A DNA stretch of 64,000 bases, taken from Dehalococcoidia bacterium (lineage in GTDB: Bacteria > Chloroflexota > Dehalococcoidia > E44-bin15). The notes under the pieces are model-generated. The model worked only from the letters and a program-made list of their open reading frames with translations, did no database searches and was not told the origin of the DNA. The stretch spans positions 30,381 through 94,380 of the forward strand of contig DATKYK010000005.1 of the NCBI GenBank assembly GCA_035528575.1, given 5' to 3'. The first letter of the stretch is position 1, and the number at the start of each line of letters is the position of its first letter. The position numbers were made by a program, and so were the translations under genes. Of the stretch, positions 1-21,405 are shown piece by piece.

Positions 1-569
1 TGTTCCACGTATACCACGCCCAAAGTGCGCAGCATCTTTATGAGCAGGTAGCACTCTTCGTTGTCCAGCGCCGCACCGCCCAATGAGGCGATGCCCTCGG
101 TCCGGTTTACCGTGTAGCCCTGATCATCGGTTGCCTTCCAGTTATCCGGGGCATCGCGGGTATCCTTAATCCTTCGCGCGATCTGGCCGATAGTCCAATC
201 CCAGCTCTTCTCCTCCCAACCACTTGCGCCGGGGGCTCGGTACATAGGCTTGGTCAGCCGCCTCTCGTTCAGCTTCCCATCCACCGTCCTCAGCTGGGCC
301 AGGGATGCGCCCTTGGCGCAGGCAGCACCAAGATTGATGGGATGATCGGGATCGCCCTCAATGTTTACGATATTGCCATTATCTGCCTCAATGATAAAGC
401 CGCATCCCGAAGCGTCATAGGGACAAATGGTGGTTATCTCACCGATCTTTTTGTGCAGCGGAATGGGTGAATAACCTAAAACCTTTTTCCAGCCCGCTCC
501 CTTAAACAGAAGAAAGCCAGCAGTGCTGGCACCAGATAGCTTGAGAAAACCCCTTCGAGTTAGCTCCAT
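1..569 (-). CDS. Formate-dehydrogenase-family molybdopterin oxidoreductase catalytic subunit, N-terminal 189 aa only. The C-terminus lies beyond the window start.
   Basis: Reverse translation begins MELTRRGFLKLSGASTAG (twin-arginine Tat signal). It continues ...NIEGDPDHPINLGAACAKGASL...ECYLLIKMLRTLGVVYVEH, which aligns with the FdnG/FdhA N-terminus up to just before the catalytic Sec/Cys position. GGAGGTG RBS upstream of the ATG (complement of 567-569). Not in the ORF track because it runs off the edge. Confidence 0.7.
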   Translation of the reverse strand, partial: MELTRRGFLKLSGASTAGFLLFKGAGWKKVLGYSPIPLHKKIGEITTICPYDASGCGFIIEADNGNIVNIEGDPDHPINLGAACAKGASLAQLRTVDGKLNERRLTKPMYRAPGASGWEEKSWDWTIGQIARRIKDTRDAPDNWKATDDQGYTVNRTEGIASLGGAALDNEECYLLIKMLRTLGVVYVE

Positions 570-864
570 ACGTCACCTCCGAAATTTTTTAACCAAATTT
601 CTATTGCGCTGACTATACTCCACTTTTATGGAAAATACAACGTATCCTTTTATACTCCCGATCCTTGCACCTAGCGCATTAAATCTACATCTCACACTAT
701 GAGGACTTATACCCAAAAGCTAGAAAGGCTGATAACAATACTCGGTTTCAATATATATGAAAGGAACTAGTGCTACTGTAATACGTTAATCTTTACTCAG
801 ATAAAAATATATTATACCATATGCTGTCAATGCTACCATAAAAAGACATCACAGGCAATTCCTA

Positions 865-1164
865 TCATCTATTCAGTTCTCTAGCCCCACCTATCTCTCC
901 CAGACCAAGCCTCTGAGCCAGCAAGATTATACCCTCTTTGGTGCAGAATTGTTTCTCATCGGGGTCGGTAAAAATCCCTCCGTGATCCATTTCGATGATT
1001 TTAAGATGAGCCCTAACAGTTCTTTGGTCCATACCGAGTTCGACTGCCAGTCTGGAGATGGAGAAGCAACCGCCATCTCCATCTGCAGACATCTCCATTA
1101 GTTTATTAACGATTTTCTCGTGCTTTGTCGTATAATCCCGATAAACTTTACTACTCATGCCCAT
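865..1164 (-). CDS. Small winged-helix DNA-binding protein (hypothetical regulator)
   Basis: 99-aa ORF with an HTH-like segment ISRLAVELGMDQRTVRAHLKIIE. Lies between the fdh-like gene and the ars operon. No confident family assignment. Confidence 0.35.
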   Translation of the reverse strand: MGMSSKVYRDYTTKHEKIVNKLMEMSADGDGGCFSISRLAVELGMDQRTVRAHLKIIEMDHGGIFTDPDEKQFCTKEGIILLAQRLGLGEIGGARELNR

Positions 1165-1589
1165 CCTTCCTAGTTAATTACAATGTAATAGTTTGTTAAT
1201 TTTTACCAATTCTAGTATATCAGCAGGGATTTGTCAATCCATTTAACTAAGGCTTTGGCAACCTTTCCATAGTATGCCTTATCATCGCTCTTTCACCGGC
1301 AAGATCTTCTGGCAATACCGACCCAACACCCTTAGACAATTCAAAATGGCATGGCTCGGGCCTCCTTCGAATTGTCTCAGCAGCGCTCATGGGGACCATT
1401 TTACTTCCTGGTTCCCGATAAACCCCACCACATTCAGCCCATCGAGCTCTTATTTAATAGCATCCATCTCAACACTCCTTAATGGTTTCACGGTTGTGGT
1501 ACACCCCCCCGCTACGGTACTGCTCTCACTTGATTTTATCTGCGAATCCTTTATAGCATTATACTTTACACAGTATTACCTCCAAGAGG

Positions 1590-2735
1590 CTACCTTTCGT
1601 GGTTCCATGGATCGGGCATGGCTGTTTGTTGTAATTCTTGGCGGAAAAACCTCCGTTGGAAGTATAAAGCAACGCTTACAAGGCTGATGAGCACCGGCAC
1701 TTCCACCAGTGGCCCAATAACCGCGGCGAAGGCCTGCCCCGAGCCGATGCCAAACACCGCTACAGCTACGGCTATAGAAAGCTCAAAATTGTTGCTGGCA
1801 GCGGTAAACGCAATGGCGGTGGTCTTGGAGTAGTCTGCTCCAATTTTCTTTCCCATATAGAATGAGATCAAGAACATGAGCACGAAGTATATTAGAAGCG
1901 GTATGGCTATGCGGATGACGTCCAGGGGGAGTTCCACTATAATCTCCCCTTTGAGGGAGAACATCACCACTATAGTGAAGAGAAGGGCAATGAGCGTAAT
2001 AGGGCTTATTTTGGGTATGAACTTGCTCTCATACCATTCCCGTCCTTTGACTCTGATGAGTACGAAGCGTGTCAGCATGCCCCCGAAGAAGGGGATTCCC
2101 AGATATATGAAGACGCTCTGTGCGATCTGGGCCATCGTTACGTCCACTGCCGAACCTTCGAGCCCGAAATATCTCGGTAGCACCGTTATAAATACGTAAG
2201 CATAAACAGAGTAGAAGAGTATCTGAAAGATAGTATTCAAGGCTACCAGCCCGGCGGCGTATTCGCTGTCCCCTTTTGCTAGCTCGTTCCAAACAATCAC
2301 CATGGCGATGCAGCGGGCAAGACCTATCATAATCAGGCCGACCATGTAGTCCGGATAGGGCCACAGGAAACCCAGGAACCCAATGGCAAGCAAGAACATG
2401 AGCACCGGCCCGATAACCCAGTTCTGGACCAGGGAAAGCCCCAATACACGCCAGTTGCGGAATACCTTGCCCAGTTCTTCGTACCTGACCTTGGCCAGTG
2501 GCGGATACATCATCAGGATGAGCCCGACAGCTATCGGAATCGATGTCGTACCCACGCTAAGGCGGTCGAGGAAATCGGCCATCCCGGGGACCAAGTAGCC
2601 CAGCCCCACGCCGAATCCCATAGCCAGGAATATCCAGAGCGTGAGGAAACGATTTAGTATTGACAGCCGACGGATAACACTTCCCGATTCCGTGTTACTC
2701 AACGCAATCCCCACAAGCAGTGCATGTGCTTTCAT
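1590..2735 (-). CDS. acr3: Arsenite efflux transporter, ACR3 family
   Basis: 381 aa, polytopic. N-terminal [24 protein letters not shown] matches the ACR3 signature. Last gene of the ArsR-led minus-strand operon. Confidence 0.85.
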
Positions 2736-2747
2736 CGACCTTTGCTA

Positions 2748-2963
2748 TCATAACGACCGTCCCTTGAACCTCTCCACCGGGCTCTCGCCACCGGTGTCCA
2801 AGTGAGACCTGAGCCTCCCTTTTTGAGACCGTAGGACCTTGTCAAAGACCACTTTTTTCAAGAACTTGAGGGCCTCTTTTTCATCGCGGTCGATGATAAT
2901 CCTCTGAAGCTCAACCAGCTCTTCCTCCTCAATGGCGACCGCTGTCTTCCTGCTTTCAAGCAT
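2748..2963 (-). CDS. Hypothetical small protein (71 aa) inside the ars-like operon
   Basis: ORF tightly packed between ccdA and acr3. No recognisable motif. Confidence 0.25.
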   Translation of the reverse strand: MLESRKTAVAIEEEELVELQRIIIDRDEKEALKFLKKVVFDKVLRSQKGRLRSHLDTGGESPVERFKGRSL

Positions 2964-2973
2964 AACGTGTCTC

Positions 2974-3690
2974 CTAACTTTGAATCCACAAAACTATGTA
3001 GTATATACCCACGCCGATAAAAATCAGCGCTGCAATCCTCCGCATCACTCTCTCTGCTGCAGTGATCTTGTTCAACCACTGAGAAACCTTAGCTACCCCG
3101 AAGGATAAGAGAACTGCAAAGAGCAGCACAGGAAGGCCTGTGCCTATTGCAAACACAGCGGGAAACGTGATGCCCCCTGTTGATTTAATCGACAGGGGTA
3201 TCAAAACACCGAAAAATAGGATCGCGGTATAGGGGCAAAACGCCAGGGCGAAGACAACGCCCATGAGGAACGCCCCAACTCTCCCCCTTTTGGCGACCCT
3301 TTCTGCTATAGATGAGAGCCTTCCACTGCCCTGAACGAATGGAATCTTGATAATACCCAGCATGAGAATCCCCACGATGATTAGAAGTGGCCCGAGGAAT
3401 TGCTCGCCCGAATCCTGAAGTGCTTTGGAAATGCCAGGGATACCTAGACCTGCAAGTATAACCAGGGCGCCAATTGCAGAATATGAGACCATGCGTCCCA
3501 GGGTATAGAGGATACCGGAAGTAGCCACATACCTGCGATCCGTGATATTACGGCTAATGTATGCCATCGCAGTAATATTGGTGGCTAGTGGACATGGGCT
3601 GATAGCAGCCAGCAACCCTATTAGGAAAGCGGCGATGAAGGGTAAACCACCGCTTTCAATAAAATGGAGGGCGAATCCACTAAAATCCAT
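2974..3690 (-). CDS. ccdA: Cytochrome c-type biogenesis / thiol:disulfide transmembrane electron carrier CcdA (DsbD core)
   Basis: 238 aa, about 6 TM helices. Two conserved membrane Cys are present (AISPCPLATN and LAFCPYTA), as is typical of the CcdA/DsbD_2 family. Confidence 0.75.
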   Translation of the reverse strand: MDFSGFALHFIESGGLPFIAAFLIGLLAAISPCPLATNITAMAYISRNITDRRYVATSGILYTLGRMVSYSAIGALVILAGLGIPGISKALQDSGEQFLGPLLIIVGILMLGIIKIPFVQGSGRLSSIAERVAKRGRVGAFLMGVVFALAFCPYTAILFFGVLIPLSIKSTGGITFPAVFAIGTGLPVLLFAVLLSFGVAKVSQWLNKITAAERVMRRIAALIFIGVGIYYIVLWIQS

Positions 3691-3696
3691 AAGCTA

Positions 3697-4149
3697 CTAC
3701 TCCAAACGCTCTGCTATCTCACTCTTTACCAGGTCAACAAACTCCTGGTCATTACCGATCAGAAACCAAATGCCGGTCACTGGTTCAATGTTATCAACGC
3801 CGTTTACCACCTTATTCATGTATAGAGATGACGTATAGGCCCCGTATTTGTCAACTATTGCAGCGTTGGCATCATCCTGAACATCGATCAGCATAAATAC
3901 CAGCTCACCATCTGCCAGCTCATCCGCAAAATACGTATTTATTGTATATTCCACGCCATCACCCGCGTAGGTACAACTATAGCAGCGATTGGTACGGTGG
4001 AAGTACACCACCTCTACCCCGTTATCCATGCTGGGCTTTAGAGGAGAGTCCGGGTTTGGCACAGATGAACTGCATGCGCAAAAAACGCCTCCAGCCAGGA
4101 TTACAATCATTATCAATGTGCAGGACATCGCTTTGGTAAATAAATTCAT
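3697..4149 (-). CDS. Lipoprotein with CxxC thioredoxin-like redox motif, a likely periplasmic partner of CcdA
   Basis: Lipobox LAGGVFCAC after an N-terminal signal. Motif VVYFHRTNRCYSCTYAG (CxxC) in a thioredoxin-fold-like context. 1-nt spacing to ccdA. Confidence 0.5.
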   Translation of the reverse strand: MNLFTKAMSCTLIMIVILAGGVFCACSSSVPNPDSPLKPSMDNGVEVVYFHRTNRCYSCTYAGDGVEYTINTYFADELADGELVFMLIDVQDDANAAIVDKYGAYTSSLYMNKVVNGVDNIEPVTGIWFLIGNDQEFVDLVKSEIAERLE

Positions 4150-4228
4150 GTTTCCTCCCTGTTTTCACCTTGATACACTTTTCACCGAGGTCTTACTCTT
4201 GTGAGCACAACGTGCCACATTTGCAACC

Positions 4229-4975
4229 TCAGCACTCGTTCTGTAGACAAACATCCCCCTCGGGGTCGCTGTTAACCCACCACTCACAATCACTATCGTT
4301 GGATGGGGTACCTGCCATGAAGTTGGGAACTAGCTTTGTCCATACTATGTCTCCCGGCTGGCCGTCAGCGGTGGGCCACTTCCCATGCTCATCGTGGTAA
4401 AGAGTAAGAGCTTCCTGAATGGCATCCCTAGCTTCCTCGCAGGACATGGCAATTGTTGTTGGTAATATTTCTACGAGTTGGATTTCAAAAGTCAGGTCTT
4501 CCCCTGCCAGCTGATGGGTGTTCACCATTGTCACTCTCGAACCGGATATATCGATCACCTCGGCTACAATTATAAGGTCGTTTTCTACTCCTATTTCGTA
4601 TAGCTCACCGACCTGTGGTGGCTCGTCCGGTGGAAATTGGTCTAGGCTCCCCACCACGTCAAGCGGGCCGTATGCTTCATCCGCCGGGATGTGCACAGTT
4701 ATCGATTCGTCGATGGTCAGCCCGATTACTGCTTGCTCGAAGCTGGGGAGTAACAGCCCATCTCCTATTATGAATTCCAGTGGGTCACCGCCCCGCAATT
4801 CGGAGGAATCAAATACAGTGCCATCATCCAATGTGCCTGTGTAGAAAACCTTAACGGTATCACCCTCCTTTGCAGTTACTTCCTCCGTAGAACAAGCTGA
4901 CATAAATATTGAGCCAATCAGTAGGGCCATTAGCATGAAAACCGATGCAAATCTTGTCATTTTTCCTCCCTTCAT
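4229..4975 (-). CDS. FKBP-type peptidyl-prolyl cis-trans isomerase lipoprotein with Cys-rich C-terminal tail
   Basis: Signal plus lipobox (FMSAC). FKBP core GDTVKVFYTGTLDDGTVFDSS...PLEFIIGDG...IPADEAYG. C-terminal tail SNDSDCEWWVNSDPEGDVCLQNEC, a SlyD-like metal-binding tail made with Cys. Confidence 0.7.
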   Translation of the reverse strand: MKGGKMTRFASVFMLMALLIGSIFMSACSTEEVTAKEGDTVKVFYTGTLDDGTVFDSSELRGGDPLEFIIGDGLLLPSFEQAVIGLTIDESITVHIPADEAYGPLDVVGSLDQFPPDEPPQVGELYEIGVENDLIIVAEVIDISGSRVTMVNTHQLAGEDLTFEIQLVEILPTTIAMSCEEARDAIQEALTLYHDEHGKWPTADGQPGDIVWTKLVPNFMAGTPSNDSDCEWWVNSDPEGDVCLQNEC

Positions 4976-5160
4976 ATTTAAGGTATTATATCCTATAACG
5001 GAACCACCGCAGATTTCGCTTGGGCCACAACAGCCGCCGGAGCAAGGTTGAATAACAACTTCCTCAGCTCCACAGGTGCATTCATCAGAGGAATTGACTG
5101 GCTCTATTTAAGTAGCCAAGGGTACACCTCAGTTCCTCTCTTATCGCGGTAAACAGCTCT

Positions 5161-5424
5161 CTACTTCTCTGCCTTTTGTTCTTTGTCCATAGCGTTAATG
5201 ATGAACTGGGTGATTTCAGCCTTGTTCGGCACCCGCCCGGAACAGACCGGCTCTTCGTTAAGCACCAGTCCCGGAGTGGTCAAGATGGGATACTCCAGTA
5301 TCTTATTGATGTCCTTGACCTCTTCGATGCTGGCATCTATCCCCAGTTCCTTTACAACCTCTCTTGTCGTCTTCTCCAGTTGGCTACACTTGGCACATCC
5401 CGGCCCGAGAATCTTGATTTGCAT
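5161..5424 (-). CDS. Thioredoxin-family small redox-active disulfide protein (redox-active disulfide protein 2 type)
   Basis: 87 aa. N-terminal MQIKILGPGCAKC, the characteristic CxxC of this small Trx-like family, which usually accompanies DUF318/ArsP permeases under ArsR control. Confidence 0.7.
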   Translation of the reverse strand: MQIKILGPGCAKCSQLEKTTREVVKELGIDASIEEVKDINKILEYPILTTPGLVLNEEPVCSGRVPNKAEITQFIINAMDKEQKAEK

Positions 5425-5439
5425 TTTTCTACCTCCTCT

Positions 5440-6483
5440 CTAATTTAATTGGGTTACCAGCCCGAATATGTACCCTGTTATGGTTGCCATCACCACCACC
5501 AATGCTATGTATACCAGCGTTTTTTTAATTCCCATAATTTTCCGTATCACCAGCATATTGGGCAGCGATACCGCAGGCCCTGCTAGTAACAGCGCCAGTG
5601 CTGGTCCCTTGCCCATGTCAAGGTCCAAAAAGGCCCTTACGATAGGTACCTCGGTAAGGGTGGCAAAGTACATCAGTGCGCCCGAGACAGAGGCAATTAG
5701 ATTGGCAAGAAGGCTGTTGCCTCCCACCAAGCTTGACACTATCGACTGCGGGACAGCAACTGTAATGATTCCAGCAATGAATACGCCGCCCAGGAGCCAC
5801 GGCACTATAAGCCTGACGAAGCGAAACGTCTCTTTCATCCACTGCACCAGTTCACCCCTCGCAAACCAGCGCCACAGGATGACGGCAAGAACGGCCATAG
5901 CGACACCGGTTGCAATCCAGTTCTTGGAGGCTGCAAAGACCAGGATGGCAACCAGAGTGCCGAGGAATATAATTTGCTGCCACGGCCTTTTGTCATCTGG
6001 ATTGGCGACCAGCATGTCAAAGGCCTTTGTATCCTTTGTCGTTTCCTCTTTCCGGTAGATAAAGGCCATTATGAGACCAATGCAAACGGCGAACACGATG
6101 GCACCGATGGCGCGTCCGATGCCTAAGTCGTAGCCTAAAAGCCGCGCTGTATAGACGATAGCGAGCACGTTGATTGCCGGCGCAGCATATAAAAAAGTAA
6201 TTGCCGGACCGAGGCCAGCGCCCCGCTTATATATGCTGCCGAACAGTGGAAGCACCGTGCAGGAGCAAACAGCCAGTATTGCGCCTGATACTGAGGCTAC
6301 GCTATAGGAAAGCCACCTATTAGCTCGCGGCCCAAAATATTTGAGAATCGCTGCCTGAGAAAGGAAAACCGATATAGCCCCGGCTATAAAGAAAGCGGGC
6401 ACAAGGCACGTTAGGACATGCGCCGATAAGTATTCGCGCAGGGCATCAACCCCACCTTGCAAGAGATCAATAAAAAATTCCAT
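5440..6483 (-). CDS. DUF318/YraQ-family permease, ArsP-like (organoarsenical/metalloid efflux permease)
   Basis: 347 aa, two 4-TM halves. Motif LAVCSCTVLPLF resembles the ArsP TPFcSCS signature. Located directly downstream of arsR. Confidence 0.7.
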   Translation of the reverse strand: MEFFIDLLQGGVDALREYLSAHVLTCLVPAFFIAGAISVFLSQAAILKYFGPRANRWLSYSVASVSGAILAVCSCTVLPLFGSIYKRGAGLGPAITFLYAAPAINVLAIVYTARLLGYDLGIGRAIGAIVFAVCIGLIMAFIYRKEETTKDTKAFDMLVANPDDKRPWQQIIFLGTLVAILVFAASKNWIATGVAMAVLAVILWRWFARGELVQWMKETFRFVRLIVPWLLGGVFIAGIITVAVPQSIVSSLVGGNSLLANLIASVSGALMYFATLTEVPIVRAFLDLDMGKGPALALLLAGPAVSLPNMLVIRKIMGIKKTLVYIALVVVMATITGYIFGLVTQLN

Positions 6484-6557
6484 ACAATGAACCTATTTCC
6501 TTAAATGCGCATTCTTGCATATGTTTTGTATAAAAAAGAGAGCCGTTATCCCACCTC

Positions 6558-6920
6558 TTATCCAACTGGCCTAACACAACCGGGACCGACACGCTCAGCC
6601 TTATTGAGGCGCTCCCTGTCTCGGGCTACCATTTCGTTGGCATCTAGCGCTTTCTCTACAGCTTGAAGAATATCTGAGAAATATTCTCCCGTCGTATCAC
6701 GGTCTATTGAATACAATGACCACAGGCCATCCTTCCTCAGCTTCAGAAAGCCAGCATCATATAAAGCACTCAGGTTGCGTGAAGCCCTTGTCTGGGAGAT
6801 CTCCAGCGCCTGCATCACCTCGCAGACACAGCACTCCCTTTCCAGGAGCAGGTTCAGGATCCTGAGCCTGGTCTCATCGGAAAGGGCTTTGAAAGCTTTG
6901 GTCAAATCTCGCATGGTCAA
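6558..6920 (-). CDS. arsR: ArsR/SmtB-family metalloregulatory repressor
   Basis: 120 aa. HTH LSDETRLRILNLLLERECCVCEVMQALEISQTRASRNL carries the ECCVCE metal-binding motif of ArsR. An extra C-terminal GPGCVRPVG Cys pair. First gene of the operon. Confidence 0.8.
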   Translation of the reverse strand: MTMRDLTKAFKALSDETRLRILNLLLERECCVCEVMQALEISQTRASRNLSALYDAGFLKLRKDGLWSLYSIDRDTTGEYFSDILQAVEKALDANEMVARDRERLNKAERVGPGCVRPVG

Positions 6921-6963
6921 ACCTCTGTTTAGTTAAACGTTATATGCGCATCTACGCCTATAT

Positions 6964-6991
6964 TTTATATCCACTATACATCTACTGTCAA
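6964..6991 (-). promoter_or_regulatory. Sigma70-like promoter for the arsR operon (-35 TTGACA, 16-nt spacer, -10 TATAAA). The 8-bp palindrome ATGCGCAT downstream is a candidate ArsR operator.
   Basis: Reading the minus strand upstream of the arsR ATG: TTGACAgtagatgtatagtggaTATAAAat...agATGCGCATataacgtt...AGAGGtttgaccATG. Confidence 0.45.
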
Positions 6992-7619
6992 CTCTAGCCG
7001 AGCCCTATAATCCTTCAGCACACCAGCCCGTGACACTATGATCAGAAGTTATGGAACCAGCGTTTGGTTTCTACAGAAGGCCAAGCTGATTTGGGGAATA
7101 TGGTGGACCCGTGATGCCCGGCTAACATCGAGCCTCTTTCTCCGGCCAAACTATATCGCCTATTTGCTGGTACGCAACTATGCTACCGAGGAATCTAGGG
7201 TTGCAGGATTTGCTGCGGTGCTGAGGATCGTTGGATTTATCAATGTACCCATAGTCCTTCCAGCATTCAATCTGTGACGAACACAACATACAGCCACACT
7301 GATTTTCGAAAGGGGACTTACATCTTCTATGCTCCTAACTTCACCGGTCAGCATTGCTGCCTTCACCACTTTGTACATTGCCTTGATTCTTCAGAATATT
7401 TCACTAAAGGGGCCGGGAATCGAGATCAAGCAGGTAAAACATATTAAGAATGAACAAGGGGAGGAGTGAATATGAAAAACCTGAGCTATCTCTTCAGAGC
7501 ACATATACCATCATCTGGGCTGTTATCTTTGGGTACATGCATCTAATGCGGCGAAAGCAAAGAAGGTTATATAGAGAGATTAAATCGCTCAAAGAGCGCC
7601 TGAGCAAGCAAGATTCGAA

Positions 7620-8981
7620 TTAGCGACTCAAGACATTTCGCAGGCGACCCAGCAGAGCCTCTTCCTCTTCCGGGAGGACGGTACGAGGATCGAGAAGCAG
7701 AAGGTTATTCTCAATCCGTCCGATGACCAGAGGTGACCCCCTGCGCAGCCTGTCAGCCAACTGCTTAACTTTGCCCCTTCCTCCGATAGCCACCAGGCAA
7801 GTGGGCAGGGTGCCACCGGGGAGGCTGCCGCCCCCTACTACGGATTCACCTTCAACTACTGAGGCAGCACCACCGAGTGACTGGCACCATTTCTGGGCTC
7901 GCTCCTCTATCTCCTCCAGGGATGCCGAAATCATCCGCCATACCGGGATTTTTACCTCCGCCTCCCCCTTGAGATAGTGGAGCAGGGTGACTGCCAGCCC
8001 TGCCAACCTTATCTTGTCGATGCGCACCGCGCGGGCCAGGGGGTGCTTTTGCAGCTTGGCCATAAGTTGGCCCTGGCCCACAATGATACCGGCCTGGGGT
8101 CCGCCCAGGAGCTTATCCGCAGAGAACATGGCCAGCCCTACGCCAGCCGCGATGCTCTGCTGCACCGTAGGCTCGGCCTCCAGCCCGAACCTGGCGGTAT
8201 CCAGGAGGCAGCCGCTGCCTAAGTCATCGAGTACTGAAAGCCGGTATCGCTCCCCCAGCTGAGTCAACTCCTCGATAGCCGCTGACTGGGTAAAACCGAC
8301 CAATCTGAAGTTACTGGAGTGGACCCGAAGCAAGGCGACGGTTCGTTGGGTGATCGCCTCTTCATAGTCCGACAAATATGTACAGTTGGTTGTCCCTACC
8401 TCCACCAGCTTGGCCCCGCTCTGGCGCATAACACTTGGGATACGAAAGCCGCCGCCGATCTCCACCGCCTGCCCCCTGGAGACGATCACCTCCTTGCCCC
8501 TAGCCAGGGCACTGAGGGCCAGGAGCACCGCTGAAGCGTTATTGTTTACTACAAGAGCAGCCTCGGCCCCGGTTAGCTGGCACAGCAGGGACTCAATGTG
8601 AACCTGGCGGGAGCCCCGCTTCCCACTATCGAGATCGATCTCCAGATTGGTATAGCCCCTGGCACACTCCTCCATAGCTGCCATAGCCTCCCGGCTTAAC
8701 GGTGCCCTCCCCAGGTTGGTATGCAGGAGAACGCCAGTAGCGTTTATCACCGGGCGCAGGCTGGGCTCTGCCAGAGAAGCGATTCGACTGCAGACCGATC
8801 CAACTATCTCGTCAAAAGTCGGGGCAGTTTGGCCCTCGGCGATATCACGGCGCACCTCTTCAAGGTATTGCCGCACCCCCCGGAGCACGAATTCGTGAGA
8901 GTATTCCTCTTGAAGGCGGTGTATGCGCTCATCAGAGAGCAACTTATCGACACTGGGAAGGCTACGAAGGCTTTGATCCAT
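7620..8981 (-). CDS. selA: L-seryl-tRNA(Sec) selenium transferase (selenocysteine synthase)
   Basis: The sequence MDQSLRSLPSVDKLL... plus a PLP-dependent core matches the SelA family along its full length. The start is placed at the Met preceding SLPSVD (the ORF track extends 17 codons further, to 9032). Confidence 0.85.
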   Translation of the reverse strand: MDQSLRSLPSVDKLLSDERIHRLQEEYSHEFVLRGVRQYLEEVRRDIAEGQTAPTFDEIVGSVCSRIASLAEPSLRPVINATGVLLHTNLGRAPLSREAMAAMEECARGYTNLEIDLDSGKRGSRQVHIESLLCQLTGAEAALVVNNNASAVLLALSALARGKEVIVSRGQAVEIGGGFRIPSVMRQSGAKLVEVGTTNCTYLSDYEEAITQRTVALLRVHSSNFRLVGFTQSAAIEELTQLGERYRLSVLDDLGSGCLLDTARFGLEAEPTVQQSIAAGVGLAMFSADKLLGGPQAGIIVGQGQLMAKLQKHPLARAVRIDKIRLAGLAVTLLHYLKGEAEVKIPVWRMISASLEEIEERAQKWCQSLGGAASVVEGESVVGGGSLPGGTLPTCLVAIGGRGKVKQLADRLRRGSPLVIGRIENNLLLLDPRTVLPEEEEALLGRLRNVLSR

Positions 8982-9060
8982 TGCGAAGGCAATGTAGCAC
9001 ATCCCGCTAAAGCCTGTCAAACGATATTTCACTGAAGTATTGCGTTAAAATTAACCAGAT

Positions 9061-9217: not shown

Positions 9218-10318
9218 GTGTTTATGCGCGTTTCACGGCGGTTAACGCCGGGTACATTGATCTTCGCCTCCGCGCTGCTGATAGGTATCCTGGCGGCATT
9301 CCTGGTGAAGTGGGGAAACCCACAGAACATGGGAATATGCGTAGGCTGCTTCCTGAGGGATATTTCAGGTTCGCTCGGCCTACATCAAGCGAGTGTTGTA
9401 CAGTATCTCCGCCCTGAGATCATCGGCTTCGTCTTAGGCAGCTTCATCGCTGCCTATGCCTTCAAGGAATTTCGGTCTAGAGGTGGCTCCGCCCCGCTAG
9501 TCCGATTTTTTTTGGGCATGTTCATGATGATCGGGATACTGGTATTCCTCGGCTGCCCGGTGAGGGCACTGCTCCGGCTTGCCGGCGGCGACCTGAATGC
9601 TATCACTGGCCTTGCTGGCGTGGCATTCGGCACCTTCGGCGGAGTGCTCCTACTCAAGAGAGGCTTTAGCCTGGGGCGTGCGGTGAAGAGGCCGACGGTA
9701 GCAGGGTGGATAATACCGGCGGTTATGGCCGGGCTCCTGATCATGGCGATAGTTCAGCCCGGCTTCCTCATTGAGAGCGAAACGGGTCCCGGCTCAATGC
9801 ACGCCGCGCTAATCGTCTCCCTGGCGGTGGGCCTGCTGGTAGGCTTCCTTGCCCAGCGGACTAGGATGTGCACTGTTGGAGGCTGGCGCGACCTGTTCCT
9901 TGTCAGGGATACCTATTTGTTTAAGGGAATAGTCGGTCTTTTCCTCGGGGCGCTGTTGACAAACCTGATCCTCACCCATGGTTTTGGTGAAAGCCTGTTC
10001 AATCTCGGCTTTGAGAATCAGCCAATCGCTCATGCCAACCACCTGTGGAACTTCCTTGGCATGGCACTGGTGGGACTGGCGGCAACCCAGCTCGGCGGCT
10101 GCCCCCTGCGCACACTGGTGCTTAGCGGCGAGGGGGATACCGATGCCGGCATGACCGTCCTCGGCCTGCTCGTCGGCGCCGCTATAGCACATAACTTCAC
10201 TCTGGCCAGTACTTCTGCCGGTCCGTCGGGGCTGGGACCTTGGGCAGTAGTCGCGGGGCTGGTGCTCTGCATAGGCCTCGGATTCCTGCTGCGGGAGAGA
10301 AAGACGATACAACGCTAG
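9218..10318 (+). CDS. yedE: YedE/YeeE-family membrane protein (putative selenium/sulfur-compound transporter)
   Basis: 366 aa, polytopic, with two internal repeats. Conserved Cys-containing motifs GICVGCFLRD and TRMCTVGGWRD are typical of YedE. GTG start with a GAAGGAGGG RBS. Confidence 0.8.
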   Translation: MFMRVSRRLTPGTLIFASALLIGILAAFLVKWGNPQNMGICVGCFLRDISGSLGLHQASVVQYLRPEIIGFVLGSFIAAYAFKEFRSRGGSAPLVRFFLGMFMMIGILVFLGCPVRALLRLAGGDLNAITGLAGVAFGTFGGVLLLKRGFSLGRAVKRPTVAGWIIPAVMAGLLIMAIVQPGFLIESETGPGSMHAALIVSLAVGLLVGFLAQRTRMCTVGGWRDLFLVRDTYLFKGIVGLFLGALLTNLILTHGFGESLFNLGFENQPIAHANHLWNFLGMALVGLAATQLGGCPLRTLVLSGEGDTDAGMTVLGLLVGAAIAHNFTLASTSAGPSGLGPWAVVAGLVLCIGLGFLLRERKTIQR

Positions 10319-16310: not shown

Positions 16311-16529
16311 CTACAACTTGAGTTTCTGAACTATCTCACCCTGGTTGGGAAACCGGCCAGTTTCACCCTTGGAGAACACGAGCTTATCATCTGCAAAAAC
16401 ATCAAAGATGCCGTTGCTACCGGGGACTAGCTTTGTCTCTACACCAAAGGCATTGCGTAGTTCATCCGCCAGACTGGCGGCAGCGGGCTCATAGTTTCAT
16501 TGCCTGCAATAATGTATGTCAACTTTCAT
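16311..16529 (-). CDS. SelW-like (Rdx-family) selenoprotein with CxxU motif and in-frame UGA at 16497-16499
   Basis: Minus-strand translation MKVDIHYCRQUNYEPAAASLADELRNAFGVETKLVPGSNGIFDVFADDKLVFSKGETGRFPNQGEIVQKLKL (72 aa). CRQU sits at the Rdx redox motif position, and the C-terminal G.F.V...KLVFSK..GRFP signature is typical of SelW/Rdx. AGGAGG RBS 6 nt upstream. Missed by the ORF track because of the TGA. Confidence 0.65.
16466..16499 (-). other. UGA (Sec) codon of the selW-like gene with a SECIS-like hairpin (CCGCCAG-UC-UGGCGG) 16 nt downstream in the mRNA
   Basis: Hairpin at plus coordinates 16466-16480 on the minus strand, with G/U in the apical loop. Confidence 0.45.
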
Positions 16530-16548
16530 AATGTACCTCCTGCGGATT

Positions 16549-21307: not shown

Positions 21308-21405
21308 TGGCGGGAGCGCATAGGAGTCGAACCTACCGTAGACACCGCAAGGTGCCCACCAACGGATTTGAAGTCCGCGGAGTCCACCGGGGCCCATCCG
21401 CTCCC
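21308..21405 (-). tRNA. selC: tRNA-Sec (anticodon UCA), full length with encoded CCA
   Basis: Reverse complement GGGAGCGGAU GGGCCC-CGGU-GGACUC ... GCGGA-CUUCAAA-UCCGU ... long variable stem-loop ... GUAGG-UUCGACU-CCUAU GCGCUCCC G CCA. It has a 6-bp D-stem with 4-nt loop, UCA anticodon, long extra arm and 5-bp T-stem, all typical of bacterial tRNA-Sec. There is a G-G mismatch at acceptor pair 8. Confidence 0.8.

Follow-up and report, generated by a model that had tools for sequence, protein, structure and literature searches.

Gene content and layout of the ars cluster

The present study concerns an arsenic-resistance (ars) gene cluster at positions 1590 to 6991 of a 64,000-nucleotide stretch of DNA from a Dehalococcoidia bacterium (contig DATKYK010000005.1), which is hereafter called the window. 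Judged by its gene content and by comparisons with related genomes, the cluster is the Dehalococcoidia form of a widespread ars operon, in which arsR, an arsP-type permease gene, arsE, a set of variable genes, arsF, arsG, a set of small genes, and acr3 follow one another. The features in which it is a variant of this otherwise known kind are a gene that fuses an FKBP to a four-cysteine domain and a gene for a 71-amino acid (aa) protein. We hold the identity of the operon together with its control by ArsR with high confidence. The coding features, in the direction of transcription, are as follows.

6558-6920, minus strand: open reading frame (ORF) of arsR, an ArsR/SmtB repressor (NF033788, HTH_5; ECCVCE motif)
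5440-6483, minus strand: ArsP_1-type permease (PF03773, E 1.7e-78; its CSC motif is C73-S-C75)
5161-5424, minus strand: arsE, an 87-aa thioredoxin (Trx)-like protein (Thioredoxin_3; GPGCAKC motif)
4229-4975, minus strand: FKBP gene, a 248-aa ORF (PF00254)
4460..4975, minus strand: within the FKBP gene, residues 1-172, a lipoprotein signal and a SlyD/SlpA-type FKBP
4229..4450, minus strand: within the FKBP gene, residues 176-248, a four-cysteine domain fused C-terminally to the FKBP
3697-4149, minus strand: arsF, a 150-aa CxxC (CYSC) protein (NF040494; without a Pfam family)
2974-3690, minus strand: arsG, a membrane protein of the DsbD/CcdA superfamily (NF040495; DsbD_2, PF13386; DsbD_TM, PF02683)
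2748-2963, minus strand: gene for a 71-aa small protein without cysteines and without a family
2695..2751, minus strand: remnant of a 4Fe-4S ferredoxin gene, 18 codons, recognised by alignment with a close relative (locus L001)
1590-2735, minus strand: acr3, an arsenite efflux permease, a 381-aa ORF (TIGR00832)

The eight minus-strand ORFs are present where the original prediction, which had been made from the letters of the window and a list of its ORFs, placed them. They are co-directional and separated, from arsR to acr3, by short spacers of 74, 15, 185, 79, 6, 10, and 12 nt. A terminator scan found no terminator-like sites in these spacers on the minus strand, and it did place one at 7607..7585, just past the upstream gene selA.

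Family identity of ArsE, ArsF, and ArsG

Regarding the three CxxC or DsbD-like proteins of the cluster, which had been regarded as parts of an uncharacterised route of metalloid-thiol handling, all three were found to score above the cut-offs of curated NCBIfam models. The 87-aa protein reached 100.1 bits against TIGR00412 (MTH895/ArsE thioredoxin-like; cut-off 62), the 150-aa protein 86 bits against NF040494, "nitrophenyl compound nitroreductase subunit ArsF" (cut-off 60), and the membrane protein 283.5 bits against the equivalog model NF040495, "aromatic aminobenzylarsenical efflux permease ArsG" (cut-off 200). On these matches, the trio is a set of members of the named ArsE, ArsF, and ArsG families and not an undescribed module. 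The same gene set is also annotated by PGAP/RefSeq in two Bacteroidota, Prevotella nigrescens F0103 (NZ_CP072340.1) and Fulvitalea axinellae pFA1 (NZ_AP025315.1), and the description "uncharacterised" had to be abandoned.

Chen, Zhang, and Rosen (2019, Environ Sci Technol 53:6182) are said to have described the arsEFG genes of Shewanella putrefaciens 200 as encoding a nitroaromatic-arsenical nitroreductase plus an efflux permease, and it is from these genes that the NCBIfam names ArsE (TIGR00412), ArsF (NF040494), and ArsG (NF040495) derive. A full-text search of the literature found no work on arsEFG genes in Dehalococcoidia. In at least one passage of PMC9144182, which cites Chen et al. (2019), ArsG is listed among efflux transporters and ArsE and ArsF among organoarsenical-resistance proteins.

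The window cluster resembles arsEFG of S. putrefaciens in its small CxxC Trx-like protein, its CxxC protein of approximately 150 aa, its membrane protein of the DsbD family, and its ArsR-type regulator. It differs in that arsE is joined to an ArsP-type permease gene, with other genes between arsE and arsF-arsG, in the addition of acr3, the 71-aa gene, and the FKBP fusion, and in its host, which belongs to an anaerobic Dehalococcoidia lineage. Similarly, the P. nigrescens and F. axinellae clusters share with the window an ArsR-type regulator, a thioredoxin-family protein, ArsF, ArsG, and a "permease", and that of P. nigrescens additionally carries ArsC and ACR3. The ArsF motif VxVxYFH..RCxxC is invariant among the Chloroflexota and Bacteroidota members, and the window and the Bacteroidota records have the ArsG motifs SPCPLATNI and FALAFCP in common. 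The Bacteroidota clusters differ from that of the window in gene order and in sequence, with identities of 22-27% for ArsF and 39-45% for ArsG, and neither contains the FKBP, the four-cysteine domain, or the 71-aa gene, all of which are present in the window.

Conservation in relatives and remodelling by deletion

In order to sample relatives, one genome per species was scanned with an ArsF alignment, which yielded 50 loci, nearly all from metagenome-assembled genomes (MAGs) of Dehalococcoidia/Dehalococcoidales. The window proteins were searched in these loci, and neighbours were counted when they lay on the same strand and within 8 kb of arsF. The arsG gene follows arsF directly in 49 of the 50 loci, and arsE (42 loci), arsP (39), arsR (35), and acr3 (33) were found near arsF. 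In 44/50, arsF had one or more of arsR, arsP, and acr3 nearby, and three of the six loci that had none of them are contigs shorter than 3.1 kb. The commonest gene order among the related loci is arsR-arsP-arsE-arsF-arsG-acr3, and the closest relatives of the window are Dehalococcoidales MAGs, with 74-91% amino-acid identity to two of the loci (L004 and L020).

Since arsF and arsG stand beside ars genes in the relatives, they are ars genes. The expectation that the redox module would be conserved with acr3 and arsP thus stands for the CcdA-like protein (ArsG) and the CxxC protein (ArsF), which keep company with ars genes in 44/50 loci, and falls for the FKBP, found in 0/50. Cytochrome c maturation genes, which the original prediction had named as an example of unrelated company for this pair, were not seen among the inventoried ORFs of the 50 loci (the inventory was not exhaustive), and the neighbours in relatives were ars genes instead. 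What had appeared to be a new relay is, therefore, arsEFG, a standard part of ars operons across the sampled Dehalococcoidia, and this correction is useful for the annotation of uncultured and environmentally important anaerobes.

Two close relatives have lost parts of the cluster. In L001, which shows 94-95% DNA identity to the window, the 3' flank of selA is joined to the last codons of arsE, and arsR, arsP, and most of arsE are missing. L065 also lacks arsR, arsP, and most of arsE, and, in addition, arsF (22 codons are left), arsG, and the 71-aa gene, with the FKBP-tail gene kept directly before acr3. Over the aligned segments, L001 (1-530) and L065 (1-1525) are 82-95% identical in DNA to window 5197-7952. 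These losses, together with the ferredoxin stub of the window described below, show that the cluster is being remodelled by deletions in this lineage.

Probable control by ArsR

The ArsR protein matches NF033788 with 81.4 bits (cut-off 55) and PF01022 with 56.6 (cut-off 22). The As(III)-site pattern of the ArsR/SmtB family, a cysteine cluster at the start of the DNA-binding helix, is present as ECCVCE, and its C30, C31, and C33 are kept in 36-38 of 38 homologues. The start of arsR is more likely to be the ATG at 6914, which lies behind the predicted ribosome-binding site AGAGG, than the start of the longest ORF. The predicted control elements are as follows.

6962..6991, minus strand: sigma-70-type promoter TTGACA-18 nt-TAAAAT, matching at 11/12 positions
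6942..6961: operator 1, the 20-bp dyad ATAGGCGTAGATGCGCATAT, directly after the -10 and containing ATGCGCAT
6503..6522: operator 2, the dyad again (ATATGCAAGAATGCGCATTT), in the spacer between arsR and arsP

The sigma70 promoter that had been claimed was found again as TTGACA-18-TAAAAT at 6991..6962. The palindrome ATGCGCAT that had been placed at the predicted transcription start is also present, at 6944-6951. As a stand-alone signal the 8-mer was rejected, because three copies in the window against 1.4 expected are within chance. An alignment of related upstream regions revealed a 20-bp dyad, ATATGCG-N3-ATGCGCATAT, with the arms ATATGCG and CGCATAT; the 8-mer forms its right half, and the dyad has taken the place of the 8-mer. 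At up to three mismatches, the window contains exactly two such sites against 0.17 expected, a number reached by none of 100 shuffles; operator 1 has one mismatch to the dyad consensus and operator 2 has two. The related loci, 553 kb in total, contain 50 dyad sites, and 48 of them lie no more than 80 bp upstream of arsR or arsP, with the dyad found upstream of arsR in 27/35 loci and upstream of arsP in 15. A promoter of the form TTGAC-N16-19-TAnnnT abuts the dyad in 22 of 31 related arsR upstream regions, mostly with zero spacing, as in the window.

Control of the cluster by ArsR is thus well supported by these comparisons, namely by a conserved predicted operator at the promoter plus the second copy before arsP. 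Consistent with the behaviour of the family, ArsR would bind at two places, the dyad adjoining the -10 of its own promoter and the copy before arsP, and As(III) bound at the CCVC site would release it. The conserved 20-bp operator, as predicted here, and the fusion of the FKBP to four cysteines are small additions that are open to direct experiment.

Efflux permeases

The ArsP-type permease contains a full-length PF03773 domain, the C73 and C75 of which are kept in 42/42 and 37/42 homologues, respectively. It shares this full-length domain and the vicinal C-x-C in a membrane helix with the methylarsenite efflux permease ArsP of Campylobacter jejuni; unlike the latter, it reaches no curated equivalog model and is here always paired with arsE, and its scores fell below the cut-offs of the curated subfamilies SO_0444 (Cu/Zn efflux; 123 bits against 300) and SaoE (120 against 325). 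ACR3 was recognised by the equivalog model TIGR00832 with 453 bits (cut-off 283), and C142 in its R-C-I-A motif is kept in 32/32 homologues. Both ACR3 and the ArsP-type permease would export trivalent arsenicals.

FKBP fused to a four-cysteine domain

The FKBP was identified by PF00254 (E 4.5e-17), and in a comparison of its AlphaFold2 (AF2) model (predicted local distance difference test, pLDDT, 82.7) with the PDB using Foldseek, the top matches were SlpA (4DT4) and SlyD (4ODM), with E values of about 1e-14 over approximately 145-153 columns. In common with SlyD/SlpA, it has the FKBP fold plus an insert-in-flap (IF) chaperone domain. SlyD is cytoplasmic, whereas the protein of the window has a predicted lipoprotein signal with the lipobox FMSAC, the S-A-C of which is kept in homologues. 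In the place of the unstructured, His/Cys-rich metal-binding tail of SlyD, it carries a conserved folded domain of approximately 73 residues with four cysteines and no His-rich run. Its start is more likely to be the ATG at 4960, which lies behind GGGAGG, and homologues begin with MTRFASV.

The C-terminal cysteine tail that had been described for this protein is real; nevertheless, it has four conserved cysteines and not three, and it is a separate domain that also occurs outside ars clusters. It comprises the last 73 residues, with the pattern C-x50-C-x12-C-x4-C, in which all four cysteines are invariant. Among its 25 homologue clusters, nearly all are standalone proteins of approximately 118 aa, in which a signal and a Pro/Thr linker precede the domain. 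In L004 and L020, a standalone gene of this kind takes the slot of the FKBP gene, after arsE, and in L042 it stands between arsG and acr3. Fusions to an FKBP were found only in close relatives (P0001, P0002, P0005, and P0007).

A search of Pfam with the tail up to an E value of 10 returned only noise (CBM_19 at 0.02-0.14 and PilW_C at 0.27). Among PDB sequences, a profile search found no significant match, only the C-terminal helix of IscU (E 0.16-1.3) and pilins (approximately 0.85). A resemblance to a GspG-like pseudopilin was rejected after hhalign, run against an EpsG sequence, assigned it a probability of only 3.5%, over 21 columns. We also rejected the idea that the standalone protein is always linked to arsenic, because several copies lie in a neighbourhood of the form gatC-gatA-tail-81aa-methyltransferase-AsnC. 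This neighbourhood was seen in L054-L060 (e.g., L054 7001-8437) and comprises gatC, gatA, the four-cysteine gene, a gene for an 81-84-aa protein, an S-adenosylmethionine (SAM) methyltransferase gene, and AsnC; the methyltransferase, of class I, does not match ArsM models, and the 81-84-aa protein has no family.

Our reading of the FKBP gene, from these sequence comparisons, is that a general chaperone of the envelope and a small cysteine domain with an existing tie to ars clusters were joined in a fusion specific to this lineage: a SlyD-type folding helper of the envelope would have fused to a four-cysteine lipoprotein domain that already occupied that position of the operon in relatives. Another explanation, which appears quite possible, if somewhat doubtful, is that the fusion is a passenger, i.e., a general folding helper of the envelope that was placed or left there by rearrangement, without an arsenic-specific role and perhaps with its own transcription. 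It draws on the absence of the FKBP from the cluster in all 50 genome loci and on the genomic surroundings of FKBP homologues without the tail (67-72% identity), which adjoin recO, surE, sucCD, or a trypsin-like protease gene; these housekeeping neighbourhoods led us to reject the FKBP as a conserved ars gene, and the original prediction of an integral, conserved member of the operon cannot be maintained. One FKBP-tail fusion (L066) is likewise at a housekeeping protease site, the spacer ahead of the FKBP gene is the 185-nt one, and several deletions surround the gene in this lineage. However, the FKBP gene has been kept beside acr3 in all three close relatives despite losses of arsR-arsP-arsE or arsFG, and in more distant relatives the tail domain alone occupies the same slot. 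Moreover, no promoter-like or terminator-like site was found in the spacer: as a candidate internal promoter, TATAAT at approximately 4989-4984 was rejected since it has no acceptable -35, and the promoter scan made no call.

Anatomy of the trio and the proposed relay

The names of the curated families and the anatomy of the proteins are in conflict: the former speak of a nitroreductase subunit and an efflux permease, and the latter of an exported thioredoxin fold and a DsbD-type membrane protein. ArsE matches MTH895 (PDB 1ILO) with an E value of 1.6e-17, and its CxxC (CAKC) is kept in 45/46 homologues. It has no hydrophobic N-terminal segment, and because the sequence opens directly with the first strand, without a signal sequence, we place ArsE in the cytoplasm. 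ArsG scores 84.5 bits against PF13386 and 45.7 bits against PF02683 in Pfam, and its cysteines C33 (SPCP) and C152 (FCP), one in each half, are kept in 46/46 homologues. The AF2 model of ArsF (pLDDT 87) begins with an N-terminal helix and continues through a Pro/Ser linker, which is disordered, into a domain of the order beta-alpha-beta-alpha-beta-beta-alpha; the CxxC, which is kept in 50/50 homologues, is at the start of helix 1. All 50 best matches of this model to the PDB in Foldseek were thioredoxins or protein disulfide isomerase (PDI) domains, and a flavin nitroreductase-like fold was seen neither in the model nor among these 50 matches. No direct sequence relatives of ArsF and ArsG were found in the PDB. 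A lipobox, L/F-C-A-C, is common in homologues of the ArsF family.

ArsF thus models as a membrane-tethered, exported thioredoxin fold. The architecture of Trx-like, DsbD-like, and exported CxxC proteins that had been proposed from the sequence was borne out by this model with its anchor and by the invariant redox cysteines. As modelled, the architecture of the trio is that of a relay from Trx through CcdA to a ResA-type protein. The mechanism proposed from the sequence agrees more closely with the structures than the curated names do. The CcdA/DsbD relays, in which thioredoxin passes electrons to CcdA and on to ResA, CcsX, or StoA, appear from sequence and models to have the same three parts as ArsE, ArsG, and ArsF. 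Unlike CcdA-type relays, the best Pfam match of ArsG is DsbD_2 and not the CcdA-type DsbD_TM, and the neighbours of ArsFG are ars genes in contrast to the cytochrome c or sporulation genes of CcdA relays.

Considering this anatomy, a chain from a Trx through a DsbD-like protein to an exported Trx would be the most likely arrangement. Cytoplasmic ArsE would supply the pair of membrane cysteines of ArsG with reducing equivalents, ArsG would reduce the CxxC of the outward-facing, tethered ArsF, and ArsF in turn would reduce an extracytoplasmic substrate, which may be an arsenical, as in the published nitro-reduction phenotype of Shewanella, or protein thiols damaged by arsenic. This relay mechanism is tentative, and we regard its chances as slightly short of even; the explanation as a whole, in which operon identity and control are taken together with the relay, is moderately probable. 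Both the relay and the operon are argued from sequences, structure models, and comparative genomics. If the relay exists, arsenic defence would include an arm that protects thiols in the envelope, and the family names would need revision. The most far-reaching form of the proposal is rather unlikely: arsenic would induce a transmembrane reducing relay of ArsE, ArsG, and ArsF that is dedicated to protecting or repairing extracytoplasmic cysteines, for instance by holding the thiols of exported proteins in reduced form and clear of As(III), or to reducing extracellular arsenic. The nitro-reduction of poultry-feed arsenicals in Shewanella would be a side reaction, ArsG would be an electron conduit that has been mislabelled as an "efflux permease", and in this lineage a SlyD-type four-cysteine chaperone would have been recruited as a folding helper for the same stress.

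Between arsG and acr3, some related clusters contain genes for a DsbA-like protein (PF13462/PF01323) and a MauE/DoxX membrane protein (L006 9628-10814, L007 9802-10915, and L042 7677-8303). The two are possibly a disulfide-forming pair inside ars clusters, and their presence again points to thiol chemistry in the envelope as a theme.

Several points weigh against the explanation that we prefer, i.e., an ArsR-controlled operon with an ArsE-ArsG-ArsF relay. The curated account names an efflux permease (ArsG) and nitroreductase subunits (ArsE and ArsF) and not an electron relay, and an As(III)-binding permease would account equally well for the invariant cysteines of ArsG. The arsE gene adjoins arsP in 32/50 loci, directly after it, and up to 3 kb of variable genes may precede arsF-arsG; tied to arsP and apart from arsF-arsG, ArsE may serve the permease and not ArsG. 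The differing gene losses in close relatives, namely, arsR-arsP-arsE in L001 and also arsF-arsG in L065, with the FKBP gene and acr3 kept, indicate that parts of the cluster are separable. Furthermore, an internal transcription start in the spacer before the FKBP gene is possible.

The published model of ArsEFG, taken as it is, reportedly has ArsE and ArsF together reduce trivalent roxarsone or nitarsone at the nitro group and ArsG export the resulting aminophenyl arsenical, in which case the operon would be an island of arsenical and organoarsenical resistance with three pumps and without a thiol-disulfide relay. The curated models speak for it, as all three proteins exceed the NCBIfam cut-offs and ArsG does so at the equivalog level, as do the placement of the three in the passage of PMC9144182 cited above and the use of the same names by RefSeq for the Bacteroidota clusters. 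We nevertheless regard this model as unlikely to hold, because ArsF is modelled as a plain thioredoxin fold with a CxxC and an export signal or lipobox and without a flavin or nitroreductase-like domain, because ArsG holds both hallmark cysteines of the DsbD family in every one of the homologues compared, and because the module is near-universal in the sampled Dehalococcoidia loci, where synthetic nitroaromatic arsenicals would be an improbable selective agent.

A further reading, in which ArsF is an extracytoplasmic arsenic-binding chaperone or sink, the CxxC and perhaps the four-cysteine domain capture As(III) or methylarsenite (MAs(III)) that has been pumped out, and ArsG and ArsE keep these cysteines reduced, would suit the invariance of the ArsF CxxC and the four tail-domain cysteines, the predicted tethering of both proteins outside the membrane (lipobox, model), and the tail protein within the ars clusters of L004, L020, and L042, but it is very unlikely, since two cysteines bind As(III) weakly in comparison with the usual three and the tail domain also lies in the housekeeping context gatCA-tail-81aa-methyltransferase, which has no ars genes.

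Small genes and a ferredoxin remnant

Although no Pfam or NCBIfam family was found for the 71-aa protein, sequence searches recovered 124 clusters of homologues at 50% identity (E <= 1e-3), and by this measure it is a real conserved family of small proteins and an accessory of the cluster. Of the 50 related ars loci, 9 contain its gene, which varies in position and is sometimes present as tandem copies, and in P0165 its ORF continues into that of ArsF by read-through.

Between the 71-aa gene and acr3, the 18-codon stub (2695-2751, minus strand) is, from the alignment, a product of decay of a ferredoxin gene: L001 has a gene for a 43-aa Fer4 protein at this site, and the window shows, by comparison, an 87-bp deletion that ends exactly at the TTG (2702) with which acr3 starts in L001. 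Since, in the alignment with L001, this remnant supplies the opening 11 codons of the 381-aa ORF, acr3 probably starts at TTG 2702, and the ORF would overstate ACR3 by 11 residues.

Neighbouring loci and accessory genes

A selenium-utilisation locus lies beside the operon, with selA (7620-9032, minus strand; 567 bits) and a gene for a YedE selenium transporter (9218-10318, plus strand), and, further away, the gene for tRNA-Sec (21308-21405, minus strand). A gene for a SelW/T/H-like CxxU selenoprotein is at 16311-16532, with an in-frame TGA at 16497-16499. In several related ars clusters (L004 4262-4672, L020 1776-2009, and L009-L011), a gene of the SelT/SelW/SelH family stands between arsE and arsF and adjoins an ArsC of the low-molecular-weight (LMW) phosphatase type; the N-terminal reading CVE-TGA suggests that the L004 member encodes a CxxU selenoprotein.

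A recurrent accessory trio was also observed inside Dehalococcoidia ars clusters, between arsE and arsF, in L019, L025-L027, L030, L040, L043, L050, and L052. It consists of genes for an 88-99-aa protein with EKPCCPAAAARM and no family, a DGC-domain protein (PF08859), and a 180-aa PF04060 Fe-S protein, and it is sometimes accompanied by DUF169.

Just downstream of acr3, the G+C content falls to 0.40-0.43 (window 501-1500). A 99-aa ORF without a family lies at 865-1164 on the minus strand and has a promoter-like sequence of its own, TTGACA-17-TAGAAT, at 1237..1209. In L001 and L065, a gene for a CsoR-type repressor is found in place of this ORF.

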